A stretch of DNA of 57,354 nt from Prorocentrum cordatum (lineage: Eukaryota). How positions within the stretch are numbered: position 1 is the stretch's first letter; each line of letters opens with the position of its first letter. A program made the position numbers and the translations under genes. The notes below the pieces were generated by a model that saw nothing but the letters and a program-made list of their open reading frames with translations, ran no database searches and was not told where the DNA came from. The stretch covers positions 62,001 through 119,354 of the forward strand of contig CAUYUJ010000035.1 in assembly GCA_963575745.1 (NCBI GenBank). Reading direction: 5' to 3'. This document shows, one piece after another, positions 1,300 through 31,634 of the stretch.

Positions 1300-2003
1300 A
1301 ACACGCGTGTCGGTAGGGCGGGCGGCGCGTTTCGCCTTAGACATCCTCTCCGTTACCGATCCCGGAGCTTACTTTCAACAAGTACCTGGATGGAGACAGG
1401 TCGTGTTCGAGATGTGGCCCTCGCCTCAGTGCTACGCGTACTCGTCTTGAAGATTTCCCAACTGCGACGTGACTGGAGCACAGGTCGCTTGCACAATGTG
1501 GCTCCACCTTCAGCGCCGCGCGCATTTGTCTTAACATATTCCAGCAGCTACACGGATTGAGGGCGGCTCCTTGGCAAAACAAGACTTTGTTAGAGACTCC
1601 CTTAGATATTTTTCATGCTCAGGAATCACAAGTTGTGCAACAACTACGGTCACGCCATGCCTTGCGAGTGGACATTGTGTCGCTCGGCTCAACGGGGCGG
1701 GAGGCTCGGAAAGGCTCGGGACGTGGACGCCTGGGGGCCTGAATATGGATAGCATGTCACGCCGAAACGTGGTAGGCCAGAACTGGCAGCGCGACACGCT
1801 GACTAAAAAGTGTCATCCTGACCGTATACGGACGGATGGCAGCTCCTTGTCAGATCGGAGCTGTCGCTTGAGACGCCCTTAGGTTGTATGGCCAGGCTTC
1901 GAAAAGTTGTGCACGTTTGCACGGGTTGATGGCGGCTCTTTTTCAAAGCGGAGCCCTTGGGCGTTGTGCAGCATCGCTGATACATGTTAGGTTTACTCTG
2001 GTC
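1300..2003 (+). mobile_element. Dispersed satellite-bearing element, strongly diverged copy
   Basis: Head GGGCGGGC..GCGTTTCGCCTTAGAC, degenerate 83-bp units, tail CATCGCTGAT..GGTTTACTCTGGTCC running into (CCT)n. Confidence 0.55.
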
Positions 2004-2959
2004 CTCCTCCTCCTCCTCCTCCTCCTCCTCGTCATCATCATCCTCGCCCTCGTCGTCCTCCTTCGCCTTCTCTTACTCTTCTTACTCCACCGCCTCCTCC
2101 TTCCCCTCCAAGGGTCGGCCACCGCCCTGTCGGATGCTTCTCGGGGCTTCTTGGCCTCCAAGCTCGGTCTTGACGAGGTTCCCCCTCGTGCTCGGTGCCA
2201 GGAATCGACTCGTCCGTGGGCTCGCGCTGTTTGGATTCTCCTCCCGCGCCGCGGGTGAAGAGCTGGGGAAGCGGGTCAGGACCCCGACGGATCGGGGGAC
2301 GAGTTCTAAGCGTTTGCTTGTGCGTGCGAATTGGGTGGTCCACTTTTCAACTGGTGCTACACTCATCCTCCACTCTGTCGTCGTCTTCACCCTGTCTGTT
2401 ACCGCTCATGCTGCCGCTACCACGCCTGCTCCTGATCCTGTTCCTGCTCATCTTCATGTTCCTCCTCCTCCTCCTCCTTCTCCTCCTTTCCTCCTATCAC
2501 CTCTCGCATCCCTCCTCCTCCTCCTCCTCCTCCTCCTCCTCCTCCTCCTCCTCCTCCCCATTCCCTCCTCCTATCTCCTCTCCCATCCTTCCTCTTCCTC
2601 CACACCTAAACCTTCATCCACATCGTCCTCCTCATCATCAGCAACATCACCATCACCATCAAGAATCACCCACACCAGCACCAACACCAACACCATCATC
2701 AATACCCGCATCCTCATCGTCACCGGTATGGCAAACATCGTCAACAACATCATCTTGCTGCCCTCCTCCTATCTCCTCCTTCCTAAGGCCCCTCTTCCGC
2801 ATCATCACCAGCATGATCATATGCCCATCCCTCTTACTCCATCCATCCCTGATGTGTTTCCTTCCCAGTGGGATATGATATCAGAGTTGCGCCTCCTCCT
2901 CCTCATCCTAATCCTCCTCCTCGTCCTCCTATAGTTCAGCATCCATGTACCATCCTCAT

Positions 2960-3283
2960 TTCGTCTCGTTCTCCTCCTCCTTCTCCTCCTCCTCCTCCTC
3001 CTACTTCGTCCCTCCTTCCTCATCCTCCCCCTCCTCCTGCCCCGTCCCTCCTCCTCTCTCCTCCTCCGACTCCCCCCCTCCTCCCCCCTGATCCTCCTTC
3101 TCCTCCTCCTCACCCTCATTACCATCTTGTTCGTTACTTGCTCCTCTTCATCCTCCCTCCTTCGCCCATGTCCCCTTCTTCCTCCCTCATCCTCCTCCTC
3201 CTCCTCCTCCTCCTACTCCTCCTCCTCCTACTCCTCCTCCTCCTCCTCCTCCCTCCTCTCCTCCTCCTCCTCCTCATCATCAG

Positions 3284-3343
<60 letters not shown>

Positions 3344-3383
3344 GATCATGATCATCATCATCATCATCATCATCATCACCACC

Positions 3384-3474
<91 letters not shown>

Positions 3475-3559
3475 GCAGCATCATAAGCATCATCATTATC
3501 ATTAGCAACATCAGCATCAGCATCAGCATCAGCATCAACATCAGCATCAGCATCAGCAG

Positions 3560-3602
<43 letters not shown>

Positions 3603-4020
3603 AGCATCCTACTTCCCCACTGGCCCTCCGTCCCTGCACATCTCGTCCCTCCTCCTCGCTCTCGCTGGCTCTCTCTCTCTCTCTCTCTGTCTGTCTGTCT
3701 GCCTGTCTGTCTGTGAGTCAATATGTGTGTCTGCCTGTCTGCCTGTCTGTCCGTCTGTCTGCCTGTCGCTGTCTGTTTCTCTGTCTCTCTCCCTCTCACT
3801 CTCTCTACGACTATGTCTCTCCTCCTCGTCCGTCCTCATCCTCTTCTCTCTCTCTGTCTCGTTCTCCATCTCTCTCTCTCTCTGTCTCTCTCTCTCTCTC
3901 TCCTTCCCCTTCTCCTCAAAAGCTCATCAAATTCCATACTCCTCCTTCTTCTTCTCCTCCTGATCCTTCTCCTCTTCCTCCTCCTCTTCCTCCTCTCTTT
4001 CCCTCCTTCTCCGTCTCCAG
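2960..4020 (+). repeat. Compound microsatellite (CCT)n-(CAT)n-(CAC)n-(CAG)n then (CT)n/(CTGT)n
   Basis: Directly visible. Confidence 0.95.
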
Positions 4021-4030
4021 GAGGAGTAGG

Positions 4031-4828
4031 AGGACTTATGTACACCCAATGCGCATCAACGATATTGAAATAAACCCTCCCTCCAATTTCCCTCCTCCTC
4101 TTCATAAGCCCCACACGAGGGTTCACTTCCACTGAAGGAAAAGCCCCGCTGGAAAACAACCGCTTGTAAATCCTGAGCTGCGCCAGAACACCAGTCCTGG
4201 GACTTCACGCCGCGAGTCACCCTTGCTGTTGCGTCTTGACGCTCCTGGGTCGTACCAGAGCACTATCCGTGGGACCTGCAACACCACGAGTCAACGGAGC
4301 TGATGCGCCATGGCAATCCTACGCGGTGTCCAAACACTATTTCTGGGAGGCTAGCCATGAGAATCCTCGGACCTGCTGTGAAATCTTAAGACGAATGTGC
4401 GCGGGGCTACCACGAGAGCCACATGTTGAGAAGGAGCCGCCCTCCATCCGTGAAGCTCCTGCATCTGCTTAAAGACGAATGTGCGCGGTGCTAAAACAAG
4501 AGCCACATGTTGAAAACCAACCGCCCTCCATCCGTGAAGCTCTTGTATACTTTGGTAACGGGTGTGCACGGCGCTCAGGCGAAAAACACATTTTGAAAAC
4601 CACCCGACCTCCATCCGTGAAGCTCTTGCATTTGTCAAACGGATGTGCGTGGCGCTAAGGCCACAACCACATTTTGAAAACGACCCGCCCTCCGTCCGTG
4701 AAGCTCTTGCAAATGTAAGCTTCAGGATCATAAACGGTGAGGAAATCTCAAGCGAAATTCCAGGCCCGCCCGCCCTTTTGACCAGCCTCGGAGTGCGACA
4801 GTGAGGAACTATTGATAAGGGAAAGGAA
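4031..4828 (-). mobile_element. Dispersed satellite-bearing element copy
   Basis: Reverse complement of the head/83-bp array/tail structure seen at 20190-21212. Confidence 0.7.
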
Positions 4829-5175
4829 CAGAGGACGGCGACGACGACGACGGCTTACCAACAGGTCGGAGACCCTCACATCCAGCTTGAGTGCCCCCGG
4901 CCTTCATTGGCTTCTCTCCGTTTGACCCTCCAACACGCGACTGGTGGCACCTCTCGGCCCACACCTCCGACATGGTGGCTTCTCTCGGCATGGGCCCCAG
5001 AGCCTCTCAGGACCATCCCCTGGACAGCGTGATTGTCTCGCCGTGAACGTCCCGTCGTGGGCCCTGCGGGGTCGGAGAACGTGCGCCCGGGACGCCGAAC
5101 CTGCGTAGAAGAAACGCGCCCGAGGGCAACCCGAGGCCGACAGGCCTCGCTAAACTAGGACAACTTGGATTATTG

Positions 5176-21212: not shown

Positions 21213-23534
21213 TCCTCCTCCTGCTCCTCCATCACTATCTCTCTTTCATGATCCTTCCCCTAGTCTCCGTGCAGTTGGCATTCGTCTTCTTATTCCTTCT
21301 GGCCCTCCTCCTTCCTCCTCCTTTTCCTTCCCATATTTCCCTTGTTGTTGGCATTCGTGTTTTTTTTCCTCCTCCTCCCTCCCTCCTGGTCCCCACTCCG
21401 CTTCGTCCATTGCCCCCCCCCCCCCCTCCCCCCCCCCTCCCTGCGCACGGCCTGGGGACACATAGCACAGCATCTTGCCTCGTGGAGGGGCGCTCGCTTG
21501 GGACGCGGGCGCGCGGATAAGTACGCCAAGCTGGGGGAAGAGTGGAGGCGAGAGGGAGGAATAAAAGATCCTTTATCCCTCCTCCGTTCTTTCCTTCCGC
21601 CTCCCGTCCGCCCTCCTCCCTCACGCCCCCTCCTCAAGCTCTTCCCTGTCGTCCTCCGTCCCCTCCTCCGCCTCATCTCCCTCTGTCTCCTCCCTCCTCC
21701 TGCTCATCCGTCGAGGGGGGAGCGGAAAAAGGGAGGGGACGGGAGGAGAAAGTAAAGACGAGAGGGCAAGAAACTGTGAAAACGTAAAGGAAAGAGGCGG
21801 TGGGAAGAGGAGGGACGAAAGGGAGGGGGAGAGGAAGAGTGAGGGAGGGACAGGAGGGAGAGGAGAAGAACTGAAGAAAGACAAAAGGAGACTGGAGGAG
21901 GGCTGGCCATTCGAGACATTGGCGGCCCTCCCTGGCGTTTTGCGTCCTTGTCGTTGCCTCCAGAAGGTTGCTCGTCGCCGCGACTGGATCCGCCTCGAAA
22001 ATCAAGTCAGGATGGGCCCCCCACGGTCCATCACCGATCTGATCAGCCAGCGCCGCCGCCGTTGCCGCCAACGTCCACTCGCCTCGATTCGCAGCGCCGC
22101 ACGGAGGCTGTCTATCCGACAAACGTGGCTCGCTCTCGCCAGGTCCGGAACCTCAGTCAGCGCGAGTGGCCATCTGCCAGGCCGGCGGCTTATACCCCAG
22201 AGTGGGGTCGCGCTCTGCAGCCAAGGCGATGATCAAGAAGCGGTTCGCCAGAGAAGCCTGGGCCAGCACCGCGGCAAAATCTCGAGCAGACGCTGGGCCA
22301 GCCTCGCGCGTGCGGCCTCCTCGACGCATGCCGGGGGCTGCAGAAACGGGGCCGGCCTCCAGGAACGCGGCCGAGGAAGCGCTGGCCCGGGTGCGCGAGG
22401 ACAGGACAGGACCAAGCCGCCGTTCCCGCACCGAGGTGCGGCCCTCGAAAAAACGCGCAGGCGGGAGGGGCCGTGGCCCAGGTGAGCGAGGAGAGGCTTC
22501 TCAATGATGGGCGTGGCTGCGCCAGGAGCGGGGCTGCGGCGCTGGCGCGCGGCACGCCCAGGGAGTGTCCGCCCGCAGACGTCTCGTGCAGCCAAGGTCT
22601 TGGCTGGGAGGCCCCACGCATTGCCACCGCCGCCAAGGCGCCAAGATCGGGGAGAGCCGTCTTCATCGAGGGATGAGGGGAGCCACGATCGTATTGCTGT
22701 TAGCGGTGGTCATTGCGTAGTTGGGCCTCGCGGATGGCCTACGTGCCACATGGGCAGGGCTTGCAGCCAAGGCGGAGGTTCGGGGGTGTTGGGATGGGGT
22801 GGGCATCCGTTCCCCATGTCCTCCGAAAGAAGTGCTCCCATCATGCTTATTGTGATCATCGTGATGGTGCTTACCCAGACTAACTTTGGGTGGTTCACGT
22901 GTGTGCCTTCACTCGCATGCTGGGTCCACTGCCACCCTGACTCGTGGCACTGTGGCTCCTGGCTCCAGCACTGCCAGGTAGCCGGACGACACACGCACGC
23001 GGATAGATTCCCATCCGGGAGCCGGGCGGACAGAGCAACACGCGGCAGAACGCGGCAAACAAGTTCGGCCGCCAGCACTCGCCCAGGTCTTCCACGCCAT
23101 GTGCATCTAGTTTCAGGTCGGGCGTATCCTCCTGCAGGCGAATTTTGGACGAGAAAAGAAGAATAGTCACACAATACTCCCAAATAAGCAAAAAGTAATC
23201 AGAGATCGTCACCAACATATCTTTTTGACAATTTGGGGATATCCCTCCTGTAGAGGGACATGGCCGACTTCAACTTAGCTTCCTGGCAGGTTTCCAGTAG
23301 CGGTGTCGAATTGTACACTCCTCGTGCTACCACAAGAAACGCCGAACAAGGGACGCTGAGGCCATGCTGGCTACGGCGAGACTCGGCGACGCACGGGCTC
23401 GCCACCCTACGTCGAGGGAGCGGCCCGAAAACCAGAGCGCCTCCCGAGCCCAACGTGACCTTACTTCCGCACTCTGACTGTAGGCTTCCACTTGCCCCCC
23501 ACCCCCCAACTCATAGAAAGGGCAAGAAGGTCAG

Positions 23535-23651: not shown

Positions 23652-23700
23652 GTGAGCGAAGGAGATGGAGAGTCAGATATAGGATGCACACACACACACG

Positions 23701-23761
<61 letters not shown>

Positions 23762-23934
23762 GCGCGCGCATGCACACCGCCCTCGCAGCACCGACCACCC
23801 AACCTGCGCCACCAGCGCCAGCTCCGCCGCTCTTCCGCTGCGGGGGGGGCCTGTGATAGGAGCGCCGCTCGTGTTCTCCCGAATCTTGCGCATCTGAGTC
23901 TCCGCGGCCTGGGGAGTCGAAGGGGAGGCCAACG

Positions 23935-24222
23935 CGGAGGAGGAGAAGGAGGAGGAGGAAGACGCGGACAAGGACGAGAGGGAGGAGGAGGAGGAAGAGG
24001 AGGAGGAGGAGGAGCAGGAGGAGGAGGATGAGGAGGGGAGGAGGAGGAGAGGAGGAGGAGGAGAGAGGACGAGGAGGAGGAGGAGAAGAAGGAGGAGGCG
24101 GACATGGGAGGACGGTATAAGGAGGAGACGGGATGTGGGAGCACGAGGAGGAGGACATGGGGGGGATGATGACGATGAGGAGGAAGAGGTGGAGGAGGAG
24201 GAGGAGGAGCGACAGTACCCTC

Positions 24223-24300
<78 letters not shown>

Positions 24301-24428
24301 CTGATGACGATGATGATGCTGATGATGATGATGCTGATGATGATGCTGCTGATGATGCTGATGATGATGATGCTGATGATGATGCTGATGATGATGATGA
24401 TGATGATGATGATGCTGATTGATGATGT

Positions 24429-24460
<32 letters not shown>

Positions 24461-24512
24461 CTGATGCTGATGCTGATGATGATGATGATGATGCTGATGC
24501 TGATGCTGATGC

Positions 24513-24585
<73 letters not shown>

Positions 24586-24670
24586 AACGACGGTGCTGAT
24601 GACGATGATGATGCTGCTGCTGATGATGAGGAGGACAAGGAAGAGAAGGAGGAGGAGGAGGAGGAGGAGG
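23935..24670 (+). repeat. Compound microsatellite (GAG)n-(GAT)n/(GCTGAT)n-(GAG)n
   Basis: Directly visible; ends ~130 bp from the LINE 3' TSD. Confidence 0.95.
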
Positions 24671-24802
24671 AGAACGAAGAACGAGCGAGGAAGCGGAGAG
24701 GAGGGCAGGGCGACGGCCACTCCGAAGCCCGCCCGAAATGTGGGAGACATCTTCGCGCAAATGGGACACGGCAACACTGAGAAGAACGAGACCAGGAGGC
24801 AG

Positions 24803-24818
24803 CCGAGCGGGTATGGGG
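24803..24818. repeat. Target-site duplication, 3' side of LINE
   Basis: CCGAGCGGGTATGGGG, identical to 31301-31316, adjacent to the T9 tail. Confidence 0.95.
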
Positions 24819-24875
24819 TTTTTTTTTGCTGATAGAGACTGACCGCAAGCGAACCAGCCTTCGTTTGAAAAACCT

Positions 24876-27800
24876 CTAGCCAGCGCAGGGGACGCATTCG
24901 ACCCGATCCCACGCACCGTGGGATGGGTCGTCGTCGTCCTCCACTACGCTGGCAATGGGAAAGCCAGCAAGGCCGTCCCACAAGGCCAGATCGGCCTGGA
25001 AAGCGGGCGGCGGCGAGCACACCTGCCCCGTCCACCCCACCCCCGCCCCCCCACTCCCAGTCCCGACCGAAGGAGAGAGAGCAGGCAGAGGCGGCAGTTC
25101 GGCCGACTCCAGCAGCCTTCGCTTCCGCAGCAAAATCGGAGGGCCCACGAACTCGCGGGACCGAAGCGGATGGCAGCCTCGCATGAGGTTGCGCAGCCTG
25201 TAGTACCTCGAGTCTCTCACGAGGACACCCTGCCTACGATTCATCGGCAAGCAATCCTGCGAAAGACCCTGGCTCTTCTTTTCCGAAAAAGCCCCGCACA
25301 GAGAGCAGAACAGGAAGGGCCCCGCGCGGTGAAGTGCGTGGGAGCTGGTCCTGTCGTCACAACGAAGCTGGCGAAGCACCGAGCGTGTCCTCGCTGACCG
25401 AAGGCACACCATGCATCGGAACCTTTGCGCAACCACCGTCACTGCAGGGTCGAAGCGCGAGTGCGGCTTCGGGGGACCGAGTCCCCCCTCAATCGTGCCT
25501 ATGGCACGGCCGAGTATTTGCGCTTGAGCGTCCCGTGGCGTGATCGTGCCGATCCGAGCGACCAGCCTGGTACAGAACTGAGCAACTAGGCGGATGGCGC
25601 TGCGCGACGCGCCATGCGCAGAACGCAGCTGGAGGGAATCTCTATGCATGGCGGCACCCCATTTAGCCGACTGATCAGCTTGGGCATTGCCGACCCTCTG
25701 CCATTCTGAAATCCGTCCCTCTGCTACGGCAGAGGCAGGAGTATGTGCTTTGACGTGAGAAACCTCCACCGACTCACCCCCACGGTCAGACACAAGCCTC
25801 CAAACCTCCCTCCATAGTAAGGCAAGCGGGTCACTCGCAGCGGTGCCTGCTCCAACACCTTGGCGCCAGACATCCACGAGTGGCTTGCAATCCGTATAAA
25901 ACTTCATCTGAGCTCCCATATAGCGCAGCGCCATCAAGAAACTGAAAAGCTCAGCCGCTGGCACAGATTGAATGAGACAGGGCAGAGGGCCATGGAGGCG
26001 AGCAACCACTCGCTTGCTGTCGTCAAGCGAACAGAGTCCCCATCCGCAGCGCCGTAAGCGAGAGAAACGTCCGTGCCTCCCCGACCCATCACCGAACACG
26101 TGCATATCGAGCAGCAAGTCGGGAGACCGCACCGTCCACACGACTCGCTCCTCGAGGCAGGGGCTCGGGAAGAGCCAAGCAGGGTCAGGGACAAGAAAGC
26201 GCGTGAAAAGCAAGGTATCCACCGCAGCAGCTCGAGCCATGTCTAGCATTTGACCAGCCATGGCACTGCCAGCTCTGTAATCCCGACGAAACTCAGTATG
26301 CAGGGGGCAATCGTAGAATCGGTGCCAGGTAGATCCAGCACTCTGACAGGCAAGGCAGCTCGGGTTGACGGCTCCACCTGACTCGTACAGTCGCTCCTGC
26401 GACCAGAACCCTCCTGCAAAAAGGCACCGCAGAAGACCCTGATGCCTTGGGGTCCAGTCAGGGCCTCGGATAGAATGAGGCTGGAGGAGGGACCTCAGGG
26501 GCTCCACGAGAGGAGGATGAGGGCAGGGCGAGACCCACGAGGGATGCTTCGCGAGAACCTGTCGCCACACCCACCGCTCGGTGGCCTCATCAACTAACCT
26601 ACCTCCATCCTTCGGGGAAATCTGTTCAATTGCGAGAGGACCTCGGTGGGTCTTCCAATGAAAAGGGTCAGATACAGACCAACCCAACCGCAAAAGTGTC
26701 GCAACTAGCGCAGAAGCAGGTCCGCGAATGTCAGACCAAACTTGAGACACAGGAACACTAGACAGGCGTGCCCATGCTCCACTCAGAAGTCGCGCCATAT
26801 CTGCTCTGGGGGCCCATCCGTCCCACAGCGCCTGCAGCCAGAGGAAGATCGGGCTCCTGTTGCACTCGAAGGCGGGGTCGACCTGCGGCCCAGCAAGCAT
26901 GAGGTCCAATGAGAGCGACCTGCCCGTGTGCCTGTAGACCATGCCCGCGCGCGCCAGCTGCCTCGCCCTCAGCAGGTGCGTGTTGCTGATGCCGTGAACT
27001 CCCACTGCCCAGAGCATACCAGGCTTGAGGCCAGTCTGCACCAGTTTGATCGTCTTGCCCCCAGCTTTCGCGAGCCGCTTATACCGAGGGATCCGAGACG
27101 CCATCCTGCCCAGCCGCTGTGCACGAACCGAATGAGAAAGCCGATTTCCACCGCCAAAGTCCAGCCCCAGGTTCCGAACCGAGCGTGTGAGGAACCTCGA
27201 CGAGGACGGGTTGACTTTCCTAAAAACCTTCCGTATGCCTTGGCCGACGACCACCTGGTGCTTCTTGGGCAGGGAGAGGGTCAAGCCGATCTGCGAAAGC
27301 TCAGCCGCCAAGAGGTCCTCGGCCCCCTTGAGTTCCCTGGCAACTTCCCACGCCTCGCCAATACGTTGCAACTGCAGATCATCCACCACGACCGCCACCT
27401 CGACATTCACGAAGCGAAGAGAGACGGCATCCACTGGCGACAAGAGCACCAGACGCAGCAGGGAGGTCGCGCAGCTGCAGCCCGCGACAATCGTGCGGTG
27501 CGTCACCACCGCCTGCGTGGCGATGTTCTGGAAGAGCACCATTCTGTCGAGGCAATATGATGCGAGCAGGAAGCGAAGGGTCTTACCTCGGAACTTGTGC
27601 CGACGGGCAGCTGCAGCTAAAACATGATGGGGCACGTGCTCGTATGCTTTGACCAGGTCGAGCAGGGTTGTCCCTGCCGCTCTGCCCTGGTCCCTGGCCA
27701 ACTCCGCCTTGAAACTCTGCTTCCCAACGCAAATGTCACATGAGGCCCCTGAGTCACCATACCAGAACAACCGAGGGTTGGCCTTTTCCCAGGGGCCAGC

Positions 27801-29942
27801 AACTTTCCATCGGGCCCAACGGGACCACAACCGAAGAGGCGTCGCGAAGATCCCAATAGGACGATCTCCCCCTTCAGGCGGTGGCTTCGGTAGAAGAGCA
27901 ATAAGCAGTAGAGCCCAGCACCTCGGAATGTGAACCAGGCGCTGCATCTCGACCCAGATCCGTAGGAAGACCGCGACAGCGCCGTCGTCAAGGAAGGACC
28001 AATGACGGGGATGCAGGCCACAGACTCCAATGGCCGTGTGCGTGCTGTAGGTCCTGGTAAGGGCTAAGAGCTCCTCATGGGTGGGGGCCTCCAGCTCTGG
28101 CTCGTCATCGCACCAGTCAAAATCAGGCTCTGGGAAAGCTTGGCCGACACCCCAATGCTGATGCCACTTTTGAGCCCGATGATCGGCTTCAGCAGCAATC
28201 CCCAGAGGTTCACCAGACGGCCCCGAGAAACAAGAGAGCCCAGATGCAGCCCACTTGGGAACCTCTTTGGTGAACCGGTGGCCCAGTCGAGCGCTCCCAG
28301 ATAAAGCATCTTGAACCCACTCACGCCAGGCTCGGGCCCGCTCAGAGGCCGCATGATGCTCGTGCTGAAGGGCCCACTTGCGGACCTGCCAGATCAACTC
28401 CTGGAGCTCCGAGACGTTGGCAGGGTTGACGGCCAGAACCCGAACTCTCCAAGAAGCCCAATGCTTGCAATCGGTGTAGGGGGACTGGTAGTGCACGAGC
28501 TTCCGCAAGAGGCTCCCCGCTTGTTTTATCCCCCCCAAGGTGGGCGCAGGCCCATGCCAGAGATATACGATGTCCTGGAGTCGCCTTTCCAAGACACGCC
28601 ACATACGGCCCTCCCCAATAGCCCTGGGATGAGTGGAGGCTGGGGGGCCGAGCAGAGGGACTTGCACCACCTTGGGGGGGCCTCCTCGGCCTCGGTACCG
28701 TGGATCCCCATCAACATGAAATACACGAGATAGCGCCACCTCAGCTCTTTGAACCCACAGAGAAGTGACAGCATCCAAACGGTCCTTGGTACAATCTCCC
28801 TGGGAAAGCTGATCAAGCAAGTCATCCCACTCCAGGGGGCGAGGGTCGCACCCAACAGGGCGGTGGAGAGGGAGCGCCGACGGCTTCTTGAGTCTGGGAA
28901 CTGTCACCTGTCGCGGGTGGCCAGACATGCTCAACACCACAGGGCGGTGCGGTCTGGTACAGGTAGACCATGTCGCAACTGAGCAGCTCACCACAAACTG
29001 CTTGAGCGAGGAGGAGAGGACAAAGTAATCGATAGACGACCGAGATGTACCCAACTGACAGGTCCAATTCGAGACGTCAGAGACCACCTCAGCCTGAAGA
29101 TCCCCAATCCAACCAGACTCGACCAGTTGCTCCGCTGAAAACTGAAAATCTCCACCCAGAATAAACGGCATGCCATACGCCCTCAGGACCTCCCCAATGC
29201 TATGTAGCAGGGAAAGATTTTGACCGCGGCAACCGATTCCAGTGTGCAGGTAGACCGATCCGACTAAAACACCTCCAGTACATAACCCACTCCAGAGCCC
29301 CAGACGAAATCGACATCCAGGAGGAACCGCGATACCCTCAGGCAAATCATCGAGTCCTTTGAGGCCCCAGAGCTTCGAAGTCGCAATGCCAACTCCTCCA
29401 GTGGTGCCAGCCTCTGAACGACCTGAGGGGGCAGCCGGAGCGAGGAGCGAGACCATGCCAGCCTTGACCAGCGCCTGCTGAACGTCCACCAAACGTAGCT
29501 CCGTCTGGTGGTGCTCTTGGAAAACGTAGATGTCGGCATCCACAGAGTCGCAGAGCTCCAGGAAGGGCCGTCGCGTGACCTTACCCTTGTCCCCGCACTC
29601 GATGCCCCACGAGGTGATGTTGGCCGTACACAGCTTCCATACATCAGGCCGACGGGCCGCCTCAGGCCGCCGAGCGACACGGGCAGAAGGCTCCAAGACC
29701 TTCGAGCCCAACCCAGCATCAGGAGGCGGCGCCCGCGGGTCTGCTGGCCCAGGAACCTGAGCATCGGATCCAGCAGCCCCATTAGCCCCACCCCGCGCCG
29801 CCAGAGAGCGCCACCTGCCTCGGTGCGAGGCGGGCGCAAGCAAGCGGTGTCCCGCTGCATCGAGCGAGGCGGGCGCAGGCAAGCGGTGTCCCGCTGCATC
29901 GACGACCCCGCTACCCCGACGGGGGTGGGGCTCCAGCGACAT
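24876..29942 (-). CDS. LINE ORF2 polyprotein (~1688 aa from ATG 29942): APE/EEP endonuclease, reverse transcriptase, CCHC knuckle, RNase H, C-terminal Cys/His motifs
   Basis: EN motifs TANITSW, VFQEHH, SVYLH, GGDFQ, IDYF, PHRPV (~29640-28940). RT motifs LLPKP..DRPIGIF, DLVKAYEHV, IVAGCS, VVDD, RNLG (~27900-27150). CLAC..HRFYDC (26357-26307). RNase H DGSG, AEL, YTDC, HVKAH, GNAQAD (~26100-25650). CMVC/CSLC tail. Start codon inferred; the frame is open further upstream. Confidence 0.9.
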   Translation of the reverse strand: MSLEPHPRRGSGVVDAAGHRLPAPASLDAAGHRLLAPASHRGRWRSLAARGGANGAAGSDAQVPGPADPRAPPPDAGLGSKVLEPSARVARRPEAARRPDVWKLCTANITSWGIECGDKGKVTRRPFLELCDSVDADIYVFQEHHQTELRLVDVQQALVKAGMVSLLAPAAPSGRSEAGTTGGVGIATSKLWGLKGLDDLPEGIAVPPGCRFRLGLWSGLCTGGVLVGSVYLHTGIGCRGQNLSLLHSIGEVLRAYGMPFILGGDFQFSAEQLVESGWIGDLQAEVVSDVSNWTCQLGTSRSSIDYFVLSSSLKQFVVSCSVATWSTCTRPHRPVVLSMSGHPRQVTVPRLKKPSALPLHRPVGCDPRPLEWDDLLDQLSQGDCTKDRLDAVTSLWVQRAEVALSRVFHVDGDPRYRGRGGPPKVVQVPLLGPPASTHPRAIGEGRMWRVLERRLQDIVYLWHGPAPTLGGIKQAGSLLRKLVHYQSPYTDCKHWASWRVRVLAVNPANVSELQELIWQVRKWALQHEHHAASERARAWREWVQDALSGSARLGHRFTKEVPKWAASGLSCFSGPSGEPLGIAAEADHRAQKWHQHWGVGQAFPEPDFDWCDDEPELEAPTHEELLALTRTYSTHTAIGVCGLHPRHWSFLDDGAVAVFLRIWVEMQRLVHIPRCWALLLIALLPKPPPEGGDRPIGIFATPLRLWSRWARWKVAGPWEKANPRLFWYGDSGASCDICVGKQSFKAELARDQGRAAGTTLLDLVKAYEHVPHHVLAAAARRHKFRGKTLRFLLASYCLDRMVLFQNIATQAVVTHRTIVAGCSCATSLLRLVLLSPVDAVSLRFVNVEVAVVVDDLQLQRIGEAWEVARELKGAEDLLAAELSQIGLTLSLPKKHQVVVGQGIRKVFRKVNPSSSRFLTRSVRNLGLDFGGGNRLSHSVRAQRLGRMASRIPRYKRLAKAGGKTIKLVQTGLKPGMLWAVGVHGISNTHLLRARQLARAGMVYRHTGRSLSLDLMLAGPQVDPAFECNRSPIFLWLQALWDGWAPRADMARLLSGAWARLSSVPVSQVWSDIRGPASALVATLLRLGWSVSDPFHWKTHRGPLAIEQISPKDGGRLVDEATERWVWRQVLAKHPSWVSPCPHPPLVEPLRSLLQPHSIRGPDWTPRHQGLLRCLFAGGFWSQERLYESGGAVNPSCLACQSAGSTWHRFYDCPLHTEFRRDYRAGSAMAGQMLDMARAAAVDTLLFTRFLVPDPAWLFPSPCLEERVVWTVRSPDLLLDMHVFGDGSGRHGRFSRLRRCGWGLCSLDDSKRVVARLHGPLPCLIQSVPAAELFSFLMALRYMGAQMKFYTDCKPLVDVWRQGVGAGTAASDPLALLWREVWRLVSDRGGESVEVSHVKAHTPASAVAEGRISEWQRVGNAQADQSAKWGAAMHRDSLQLRSAHGASRSAIRLVAQFCTRLVARIGTITPRDAQAQILGRAIGTIEGGLGPPKPHSRFDPAVTVVAQRFRCMVCLRSARTRSVLRQLRCDDRTSSHALHRAGPFLFCSLCGAFSEKKSQGLSQDCLPMNRRQGVLVRDSRYYRLRNLMRGCHPLRSREFVGPPILLRKRRLLESAELPPLPALSPSVGTGSGGAGVGWTGQVCSPPPAFQADLALWDGLAGFPIASVVEDDDDPSHGAWDRVECVPCAG
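29825..29902 (-). repeat. In-frame 39-bp tandem duplication in ORF2 N-terminus
   Basis: GCGAGGCGGGCGCA(A/G)GCAAGCGGTGTCCCGCTGCATCGA x2 with 1 mismatch; encodes DAAGHRL(P/L)APAS twice. Confidence 0.9.
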
Positions 29943-31149
29943 CGCGGTCAGCAGGCATAGGAACATCAGCAGGAACATCAGCAGCCGCAGGCCCAGGCGT
30001 GGCCGAGGGGGCCGCCGCCGCCGCAGCCTCAGGGCCTGGCGCGTCCCTCCTGGGCCTCTTGCTGAGGGCTGAAGGGTTCTGCAGGAACTCGAGCATGGTC
30101 CTGTAGAGACCTTCGTACTGCCCTGCCTGTCCGCCCTCCAGCAATTCAGTAAGCTGCTGCTTGCAATCCTCCGCCACGCGTGAGTCCGAGGGTGCCACTG
30201 GGGCTGGCGAAGGGCCGCTGCCCGACATGGCACGCTGCGCGGCCTCCTCGGCCTGTGCCCTCCGCCGTGCTTCCTCCTGCTCCTGGAAAGAGGCCCCAGC
30301 AGCAGCCAGGTCGCCCAGGAGGTCCACCGCGGTGCGGAGCTGGTCCGCCTTCGCCACTCTGAACGACTCGGGCAGATGGCCGAACAGCGTCTCCACCAGC
30401 CCGTTGACCGCCGCCTTGCAGTCATCGCCAGCAGGGTGAAGAGCAGCACGTCGATGGAGCCTCTGGAGCTCCTCCTCTTCCTTCTTGACCGATTCCGCCA
30501 GAGCCGCCTGGGATGCAACGCAGTCCTCCAGGTCCTGCTCCAGCTCCGTGATCTGTTGACGGAGGTTGGCCTCCGTCGCCTTCGACGCAGTAAGCTGGCC
30601 CTGGAAGTGGGCCAGCTTGTCCTGATGGGACCGAACTCGCATCCATGGCGGTGGGCCACGTTCGTCAGGTTGGGCAGCAGCAGCGGAGGGCACTTGAGCC
30701 TTGGCGGCCACCATGAGCGGGTGGTCGTCAGCCAGCCCAGCAAGCGTGAGCTGCTCCACTGCCGCCGCGAGGTAGTCGCGCTGCGTCTGCTTGCCACCTG
30801 TGTCCGAGCCTTTGCCACTGCGCTGCTGGGCCGAGCCGCCCTTCCCACTCCCAGACTGGGATTGGTCAGCACTCGTGCCTGGGCCCGACTTGGCCTTGCG
30901 GCGCGTGGACTCCACCTGTTGCCATGCATCCTTGGACTGCTGCTCGCCTGACCAAGGACGGGGGGGCCCCTTGACCGTGTCCCGAACCGGGTCGTCGCGG
31001 AGCCACTTCTTGCAACGATAGCAGCGAGCCCAATCCACCAGATTATACTGATAGCCACATGAGCTCTTGCCATAGCACGTCTTGTAGCCGCTCTGGGAGC
31101 GGGTCTGGTGTCTGCTCTGGGAGCGGGGCTGCGGGGGCGCGGGGACCAT
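29911..31149 (-). CDS. LINE ORF1 (412 aa), putative nucleic-acid-binding protein
   Basis: First ATG after the 5' UTR. C-x5-C-x4-N-x6-C-x2-C (CYGKSSCGYQYNLVDWARCYRC) resembles a RanBP2-type Zn finger. Heptad-rich coiled coil (QDKLAHFQGQL...EEELQRLHRR). Overlaps the inferred ORF2 start by 32 nt. Confidence 0.85.
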   Translation of the reverse strand: MVPAPPQPRSQSRHQTRSQSGYKTCYGKSSCGYQYNLVDWARCYRCKKWLRDDPVRDTVKGPPRPWSGEQQSKDAWQQVESTRRKAKSGPGTSADQSQSGSGKGGSAQQRSGKGSDTGGKQTQRDYLAAAVEQLTLAGLADDHPLMVAAKAQVPSAAAAQPDERGPPPWMRVRSHQDKLAHFQGQLTASKATEANLRQQITELEQDLEDCVASQAALAESVKKEEEELQRLHRRAALHPAGDDCKAAVNGLVETLFGHLPESFRVAKADQLRTAVDLLGDLAAAGASFQEQEEARRRAQAEEAAQRAMSGSGPSPAPVAPSDSRVAEDCKQQLTELLEGGQAGQYEGLYRTMLEFLQNPSALSKRPRRDAPGPEAAAAAAPSATPGPAAADVPADVPMPADRDVAGAPPPSG

Positions 31150-31256
31150 GCCACAGCAGCTCGAGAGCGGGAGAAGCCAAAATCCCTCGTCTGGCCTGGC
31201 AGACGAGGAGGAGCACTGTGGGGGCCGCTGCTCCCCCCTTGCCAGTGAGGCCAGGT

Positions 31257-31278
31257 CCTGACCCGAAAGGGCTACGGA
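31257..31278 (-). other. Second, degenerate (relict) DinoSL copy in tandem
   Basis: TCCGTAGCCCTTTCGGGTCAGG, 18/22 identical to DinoSL, head-to-tail with the perfect copy. Confidence 0.85.
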
Positions 31279-31300
31279 CTTGAGCCAAAATGGCTACGGA
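31279..31300 (-). other. Dinoflagellate spliced leader (DinoSL) exon sequence, retro-integrated copy
   Basis: Minus strand reads TCCGTAGCCATTTTGGCTCAAG, a 22/22 match to the DinoSL consensus DCCGTAGCCATTTTGGCTCAAG. It starts at the first base inside the TSD. Confidence 0.97.
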
Positions 31301-31316
31301 CCGAGCGGGTATGGGG
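31301..31316. repeat. Target-site duplication, 5' side of LINE
   Basis: CCGAGCGGGTATGGGG, identical to 24803-24818, adjacent to DinoSL. Confidence 0.95.
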
Positions 31317-31634
31317 AACGAGCAAGACCGCCCCGGAGAACTCAGCCTGCTCCCGCCCATGCGCGTCGAAGACGGGGGACAAACGGCCAACTCGCGAATC
31401 TCTCTGGCACCCTCGCTCCGGGAGGGGCGCCACCTGGCCCCCCGCAGATCGCGGCTAGAGGCGCACGGGTGCAGCGGCGCGAAGCGCCCCACGTCAAGAC
31501 GGTGAAATGAGGACCACTTGTTCGCGGCGAGCGAGGGGGGGAAGTGAGAGGGAACAGGCCCTCTCAGAAGGCAGTGGGGCATCTCAGAACCCCTCGCGCC
31601 TCCTGAGAGGTTGCCTGCGCGGCCAGTGAATTTT

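Follow-up and report, generated by a model that had tools for sequence, protein, structure and literature searches.

A LINE of Prorocentrum cordatum whose 5′ end is a perfect dinoflagellate spliced leader, and the recurrence of this start in related elements

We analysed a 57,354-nt stretch of Prorocentrum cordatum DNA (the window), which carries on its minus strand, at 24819-31300, a long interspersed nuclear element (LINE) of 6,482 bp and 62% GC. The element is enclosed by two copies of the 16-mer CCGAGCGGGTATGGGG, identical at 16 of 16 positions, which form a target-site duplication (TSD). Its 3′ end is an A9 tail and its 5′ end is a perfect 22-nt copy of the spliced leader found in dinoflagellates (DinoSL; SL), lying inside the TSD. 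An earlier, sequence-only reading of this DNA had proposed the SL start, the perfect TSD and the tail, and each was found precisely where it had been placed; the element had also been called intact, and both of its open reading frames (ORF1 and ORF2) were indeed free of internal stops. Insertion by target-primed reverse transcription (TPRT) explains the 16-bp TSD and the A9 tail; on the primed strand the nick site reads GGGG/AACG. The insertion is young, since the two ORFs are open and both the TSD and the SL are perfect. No second copy, fragment or terminal repeat of the LINE was obtained elsewhere in the window by self-BLAST. The 21-nt core of the SL, searched for on both strands with up to three mismatches, occurred only once in the window, and none of 100 shuffles gave any occurrence. 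The coordinates of all features are collected in Table 1.

Table 1. Features of the LINE in the window, and the shared 5′ end of four related LINEs (L numbers denote metagenome loci, each with its own coordinates).
Feature	Position	Strand	Remarks
TSD, copy at the element's 3′ end	24803..24818	none	same 16-mer at 31301-31316
A9 tail	24819..24827	-	read from the sequence; T9 on the plus strand
3′ untranslated region (UTR), 48 nt	24828..24875	-	span from ORF2 stop to tail
ORF2, 1,688 aa + stop	24876..29942	-	open frame, no internal stop; distant homologues
RNase H domain, ORF2 aa 1280-1430	25653..26105	-	PF00075 25.8 bits, at cut-off
CCHC zinc knuckle, ORF2 aa 1196-1212	26307..26357	-	C1196, C1199, H1207 and C1212 invariant in alignment A1
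Reverse transcriptase (RT) + thumb, ORF2 aa 651-1101	26640..27992	-	VVVDDL at 851-856; RVT_1
Apurinic/apyrimidinic (APE)-type endonuclease (EN) region, ORF2 aa 102-335	28938..29639	-	motifs QEHH, GGDFQF, SIDYF, PHRPV
ORF1, 412 aa	29911..31149	-	open frame, no internal stop; TAG stop 29913-29911
Rest of 5′ UTR	31150..31256	-	holds 9-mer ATTTTGGCT at 31183..31175
SL2, full-length decayed SL copy	31257..31278	-	18/22, TCCGTAGCCCTTTCGGGTCAGG read 31278..31257; directly follows SL1
SL1, perfect 22-nt DinoSL, element's 5′ terminus	31279..31300	-	22/22, TCCGTAGCCATTTTGGCTCAAG read 31300..31279
TSD, copy at the element's 5′ end	31301..31316	none	same 16-mer at 24803-24818
Fixed 5′ end, AGGTTGGCTCAA followed by G or A	L004:306-318, L009:266-278, L011:181-193, L017:142-154		

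The ORF1 protein has a Cys-rich N-terminal stretch and a coiled-coil-like middle, and no significant Pfam family was obtained for it. Relatives of ORF1 were sought in viral contigs (33 pattern matches) and in metagenome contigs (378 pattern matches), and none of these was confirmed. The most likely start of ORF2 is the ATG at 29942, which precedes the ORF1 TAG by 29 nt, so that the two frames overlap there. When 8,000 candidates from a large protein collection were scored, only five distant homologues of ORF2 (23-29% identity) were found; no match was obtained among PDB sequences, and an ORF2 profile gave 155 pattern matches in viral contigs with none confirmed. Invariant columns were called from an alignment of ORF2 with these five homologues (A1). 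The endonuclease region aligned with homologues bearing PF03372, had no Pfam match of its own at E ≤ 0.01, and PF03372 was passed by two related elements, L184 and L007, that are described below. RVT_1 was obtained at 22.6 bits, under its gathering score of 29.6, and D854 and D855 of the RT were invariant across A1, as were D1285, D1351, H1400 and D1423 of the RNase H domain. The endonuclease motifs lie in the N-terminal part of ORF2, and the RT is followed by the CCHC knuckle and RNase H. Judged from this gene content, the element appears to be a functional and autonomous LINE of the APE type. In the region where ORF1 and ORF2 overlap, Tandem Repeats Finder reported a 39-nt repeat in two copies (29825-29902); contigs of the family from three public sequencing runs skip 39 nt at 29824-29864 (run X1) and 40 and 118 nt nearby (X3 and X6), and the copy number of this repeat therefore differs between family copies.

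The perfect SL at the very end of the element (SL1) is not its only one. It is directly followed by a decayed copy (SL2) that begins with TCCGTAGCC and is thus of full length, and Tandem Repeats Finder reported the two as a 22-nt × 2 array at 31259-31301. No SL-gene intron sequence was present after SL1. Further into the 5′ UTR, the 9-mer ATTTTGGCT, identical with SL nt 10-18, is possibly a third SL relic. The 5′ UTR therefore reads as a series of SLs stacked by rising age, which testifies to repeated passage of the lineage through SL-capped RNA. An 8-mer outside the element, CCGTAGCC at 23376 (minus strand), was also considered as an SL relic and was rejected as a chance match. An Rfam scan of 24600-31500 revealed neither a ribozyme nor any other RNA family in the element, the sole match at E ≤ 1 being an unrelated small RNA family at 18.4 bits (gathering score, 44), and the predicted fold of the 5′ UTR was no more stable than that of shuffles (z = −1.41).

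Copies of the same LINE were then sought in public sequencing runs. Words of the element were present in 20 of the 24 runs listed (13 studies), and at least half of them in four runs. From four runs, contigs were placed on the element at 85% identity or more: 24 from X1, 213 from X3, 448 from X6 and 7 from the RNA run X20, in identity classes from >99% to <90%. The window LINE is thus a member of a multi-copy family of mixed age. An X1 contig of 1,103 nt covers 30198-31300 with 4 differences, contains SL2 and SL1 and ends exactly at 31300; an X3 contig of 1,100 nt covers 30200-31299 with 10 differences, likewise contains SL2 and SL1 and ends at 31299. Contigs break at branches of the assembly graph, and contigs that stop at the 5′ end of the SL would be expected if many copies shared the SL start and had different flanks. 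In further X1 contigs, the sequence that adjoins 31300 or 31302 is (TCC)n, a flank other than the one in the window, and an X6 contig has a 3′-end flank that differs from that of the window.

More distant relatives were obtained with a profile built from ORF2 together with the five homologues, which retrieved 44 metagenome loci at 22-36% identity. Seven of them were judged from match offsets and pairwise alignments to reach a 5′ end (L004, L007, L009, L011, L017, L026 and L029), and an SL at three mismatches or fewer was found in exactly one of the 44, L007. In this element (26% amino-acid identity), positions 75-96 of the coding strand are a perfect SL that lies some 2.3 kb upstream of ORF2; an SL relic, CCATTTTG-CTCAAC, is located at 289, and an A9 tail is present. 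A TSD was looked for in L007 and not found, and the repeated SL may have caused its 5′ flank to be misassembled. The search was also run from the other side: exact SL matches were collected from a genome collection (20 stretches) and a viral collection (119), and tblastn of ORF2 and its homologues against 138 SL loci revealed a LINE in one, L057, whose whole contig (9,096 nt) is L184. In L184 a (GA)n/(AGAGAC)n flank is followed by SL nt 2-22, ORF1, ORF2, a 3′ UTR of about 30 nt, A6 and again (GA)n. Its ORF1 (231-1343) carries a Pfam RanBP zinc finger (E = 1.4e-7) and its ORF2 the domains Exo_endo_phos (5e-9), RVT_1 (5e-11) and RNase_H (1e-5). Three LINE families (the window LINE, L007 and L184), whose ORF2 proteins are about 25-30% identical, thus have a perfect SL where element and flank meet.

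The SL-capped start recurs within the family and within the clade and is not a one-off. The expectation that other copies too would begin with the SL was borne out by the 5′ contigs of X1 and X3 and by L007 and L184, and failed for five relatives that carry a partial SL only. Some smaller features of these relatives were also recorded. In L184 ORF2 (1361-4930), the endonuclease domain is preceded by about 1,190 residues for which Pfam gave nothing at E ≤ 0.05. BLASTP showed no significant similarity between ORF1 of the window LINE and that of L184. The Cys spacing of the window ORF1 (30990-31080), C-x5-C-x15-C-x2-C, has no Pfam match and resembles a RanBP-type pattern; the ORF1 of L029 (268-380) shows W-C-x2-C...N-W...C-x2-C, as in the RanBP2-type finger of L184. 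It may be that LINEs of this clade characteristically carry a RanBP-type finger in ORF1.

These observations are best explained by a young, autonomous, APE-type LINE that was inserted by TPRT from an SL-trans-spliced, polyadenylated mRNA, and repeatedly so in its lineage, an explanation we regard as probable. It is well supported that the RNA template was a mature mRNA of this kind and was copied to its first base, SL nt 1. The sequence-only reading had proposed as much, and the location of the SL inside the TSD and the absence of SL-gene intron sequence bear it out; with the SL enclosed by the TSD and none in the empty site, its presence is not a target-site effect. According to this explanation, the LINE would be transcribed and the DinoSL then added by trans-splicing to give a mature polyadenylated mRNA, and a full-length cDNA of that mRNA would start at SL nt 1. 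An SL on the LINE mRNA is expected for the normal route, as nearly all dinoflagellate mRNAs receive one by trans-splicing according to the literature, which is drawn on here and below in excerpts. Over successive rounds the lineage would have stacked its SLs: the perfect SL1, the older and complete SL2 with four substitutions, and possibly a third trace.

How the 5′ end is defined in each round can be proposed with less confidence. LINE copies may be transcribed inside longer host read-through RNAs, with the 5′ end set by trans-splicing and not by a promoter inside the element. If the terminal AG of the integrated SL served as the acceptor, each cycle would rebuild exactly SL1-SL2, so that SL1 would be kept perfect as SL2 decays; the AG at SL nt 7 as the acceptor would instead give SL+CCATTTTGGCTCAAG+SL2. 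The difference between SL1 (22/22) and SL2 (18/22) fits such a renewal and fits a recently acquired SL1 equally well. Dependence on trans-splicing, the lack of a promoter, an acceptor function of the AG of the SL and a part in the making of retrogenes are all points that we infer. The larger picture, in which a clade of LINEs with an EN-RT-CCHC-RNase H ORF2 and a zinc-finger ORF1 is promoterless, is transcribed within host read-through RNA, lives on SL trans-splicing via the terminal AG, is thereby cut out precisely and given a renewed, capped and perfect SL each cycle, with older relics such as SL2 left to decay, and also drives mRNA recycling in trans, is put forward tentatively, as a possibility that we would not at present expect to hold in full.

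Several results weigh against these proposals. The full-length SL2 is not derivable from either AG inside an SL; an acceptor AG placed precisely where the old 5′ junction lies, or some other mechanism, is therefore needed, and an AG at that junction was found in none of the three SL-capped copies (window LINE, L007 and L184). Four relatives at 65-74% nucleotide identity (L004, L009, L011 and L017) share a fixed 5′ end, AGGTTGGCTCAA followed by G or A, next to unrelated flanks; its last 10 nt equal SL nt 13-22 in L004 and L011, and match at 9 of 10 positions in L009 and L017, which end in A. A fifth, L029, begins with TTTGGCTCGAG adjoining a (CA)n flank. These partial-SL lineages seem to have spread without regaining a full SL, and the five fixed ends speak against a full SL cap being a requirement throughout the clade. 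The short X1 contigs with other flanks share just the SL and about 9 nt with the element and could be other SL-SL loci. Cover from the RNA run X20 is confined to 24830-26454, for the most part at 90-95% identity, and leaves the 5′ half of the element uncovered; presence in an RNA library is no proof of transcription, and the gap in cover proves nothing. Lastly, no host gene or transcription unit was identified around the window copy: 43 of the 49 ORFs of at least 200 aa were compared with Pfam, four wholly inside the element and two overlapping its 3′ end or running off the window being set aside, and they gave just sub-threshold or low-complexity matches. In the four relatives with the common fixed end, the 12 nt before the final G or A are invariant and the next ~30 nt vary; after the fixed end comes (A)TCCCG or CCCGG, similar to an SL start, and the upstream flanks of L009 and L011 are pyrimidine-rich and end in AG.

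Part of this evidence would suit an incidental capture of the SL, in which the element normally uses an internal promoter, a recent master copy was by chance read through and trans-spliced, and the SL has since been inherited passively with no role. The five relatives with a fixed partial-SL 5′ end look as if derived from promoter-driven or precisely processed RNAs, and SL1 may simply be younger than SL2. Such a capture nevertheless has to face the perfect SL at the exact 5′ junction in three families as distant as 25-30% in ORF2, and stacked relics in two of the three, which amount to repeated acquisition; we consider it unlikely.

A second alternative is that the LINE RT, on reaching the 5′ end of its RNA, moved onto an SL-containing RNA, for example the free 22-nt SL exon produced by the first step of trans-splicing. 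End-to-end template jumping is known for the RTs of retrotransposons without long terminal repeats (non-LTR), and a jump of this kind would account for one complete SL placed before a complete older SL2, unlike the truncation after nt 7 seen in retrogenes. What directly follows the perfect SL looks like the beginning of a further full SL in the window LINE (TCCGTAGCC), in L007 (GCCGT, 97-103) and in L184 (TCGTA, 138-143). Among other genomic SL contexts, NCCGT follows the SL in 1 of 156 and a full-length SL-like start in 0 of 157, a weak comparison given that these controls are mostly AT-rich contigs of another organism. A second-SL-like start in all three SL-capped LINEs is therefore only suggestive. 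Furthermore, intron sequence of the SL RNA is absent from the element, and the older SL must still stem from trans-splicing even if SL1 was gained by a jump. We hold this route to be quite improbable.

The integrated SL might also act as a promoter and not as an acceptor, copies being transcribed from near their own 5′ end and then trans-spliced again. This would make each copy self-sufficient, and it has been published for retrogenes, where the TTTT/TTTG motif of the integrated SL was proposed as the core promoter (Song et al., 2017). Transcripts that start past the TTTT lose the AG at SL nt 6-7, however, and would still need an acceptor to gain a full SL, and we hold this option to be very improbable. 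Site-specific insertion into an SL gene or relic, with the SL as part of the target, can practically be dismissed, as nothing beyond the presence of the SL speaks for it; against it, the SL is enclosed by the TSD, no SL sequence occurs either on the far side of the insertion or in the reconstructed empty site, and the endonuclease motifs are of the APE type.

The explanation by copying of an SL-trans-spliced mRNA can be set beside several known systems. SLACS, CZAR and CRE, and NeSL, are LINEs that insert into SL RNA genes by means of a restriction-like endonuclease located C-terminal to the RT. The window LINE differs from them in that the SL belongs to the element, inside its TSD, and in that ORF2 has APE-like motifs at its N-terminus and a CCHC knuckle and RNase H after the RT; a contrast with these elements had been drawn by the sequence-only reading and stands on the SL-free empty site and the APE-type motifs.

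A close parallel is found in the SL-bearing retrogenes of dinoflagellates. As in the window LINE, the genomic copy starts with an SL derived from a reverse-transcribed, trans-spliced mRNA, and relics are stacked. In the excerpts of Jaeckisch 2011 considered here, the relic SLs of retrogenes are truncated after nt 7, the internal AG being the acceptor, and Slamovits and Keeling are quoted to the effect that the two AGs of the SL favour its persistence at recycled genes; the use of an integrated SL as the next acceptor is thus already published for retrogenes. The window LINE differs in that its relic SL2 is complete and not cut after nt 7, in its clear 16-bp TSD and A tail, and in that it is autonomous with its own EN, RT and RNase H, whereas retrogenes, as described in these sources, need RT and EN in trans. 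DinoSL-tagged "retrogenes" were reported by Song 2017 to be enriched for "RNA-dependent DNA replication", an enrichment taken there to indicate that RT is expressed; as far as this excerpt goes, SL relics at RT genes have therefore already been seen in aggregate. In the part of Song 2018 drawn on here, the element that mediates mRNA recycling is called unknown and Ty1/copia is favoured.

With respect to LINEs of dinoflagellate hosts, SymbioLINE and SymbioLINE-Dnmt of Symbiodinium (de Mendoza 2018, PMC5890265) resemble the window LINE in an ORF2 with Exo_endo_phos, RVT_1 and RNase_H and in their TSDs, and have conserved UTRs. In the passages considered, SymbioLINE is described without a poly(A) tail and the Dnmt type with a DNMT ORF1, whereas the window LINE has an A9 tail and a non-DNMT ORF1; an SL, which forms the 5′ end of the window LINE, is unmentioned for SymbioLINE in those passages, and the likeness is one of described architecture. 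The L1Tc/ingi elements of trypanosomatids (PMC1874656, PMC3383444, PMC3185411, in excerpts) are likewise APE-type and live in hosts that trans-splice their mRNAs and transcribe long arrays, so that they face the same problem of defining a 5′ end. L1Tc is described as having an internal promoter, Pr77, unspliced transcripts and a hepatitis delta virus (HDV)-like ribozyme, in contrast to the window LINE with the SL itself and no Rfam ribozyme match. Another selfish element with a host SL at its 5′ end is provided by transcripts and endogenous viral elements of dinoflagellate positive-sense single-stranded RNA viruses with a 5′ DinoSL (Levin 2017, as cited in the excerpts of PMC10235124 and 10.1101/2022.04.12.488082); these are an RNA virus or its endogenous copies, and the window LINE is an autonomous retrotransposon. 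No description of a LINE with the DinoSL as its 5′ end was found in a search of the full-text literature, supplements and subscription-only papers lying outside that search. The type of LINE is itself known, and the recurrent SL-capped 5′ end is its unusual part.

Dinoflagellate genomes contain many genes copied back from SL-capped mRNAs, by a machinery that is called unknown in the parts of the literature considered. It is evident from the window LINE that, in dinoflagellate cells, the EN/RT of a LINE is able to reverse-transcribe a poly(A) RNA with an SL cap up to its first base, and the element offers a concrete candidate enzyme, together with junction signatures, for the origin of the retrogenes. 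It also suggests how the 5′ end of a LINE can be set amid long read-through units, by trans-splicing as opposed to the promoter-plus-ribozyme of L1Tc. If the same EN/RT does act in trans on SL-capped poly(A) mRNAs, it would be the engine behind a large share of dinoflagellate genes.

The surroundings of the insertion and of other genomic SLs were also inspected. The ORFs that run across the reconstructed empty site are translations of microsatellites. About 130 nt from the insertion site, (CA)36, (GGA)~92, (GAT)~135 and (GAG)15 occupy 23687-24672 of the window, and simple repeats also flank L184, in (GA)n, L029, by (CA)n, and contigs of X1 and X6, with (TCC)n and (GGA)n; LINEs of this kind may prefer simple repeats as insertion sites. 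At 62 of 146 other genomic SL sites, a repeat of the upstream flank of at least 9 nt was found downstream, mostly as low-complexity AT-rich words or repeated units, and a TSD-like repeat beside a clear A tail was seen at none of the 146. Many perfect DinoSLs were present on both strands of very AT-rich DNA in contigs from giant-virus bins (L064-L143, many labelled GVMAG), which are either misbinned SL-bearing host DNA or genomes truly with SL-tagged genes. Over both collections, the first base of the SL was A in 138 of 157 distinct SL contexts, and it was most often preceded by TT (81 of 157).

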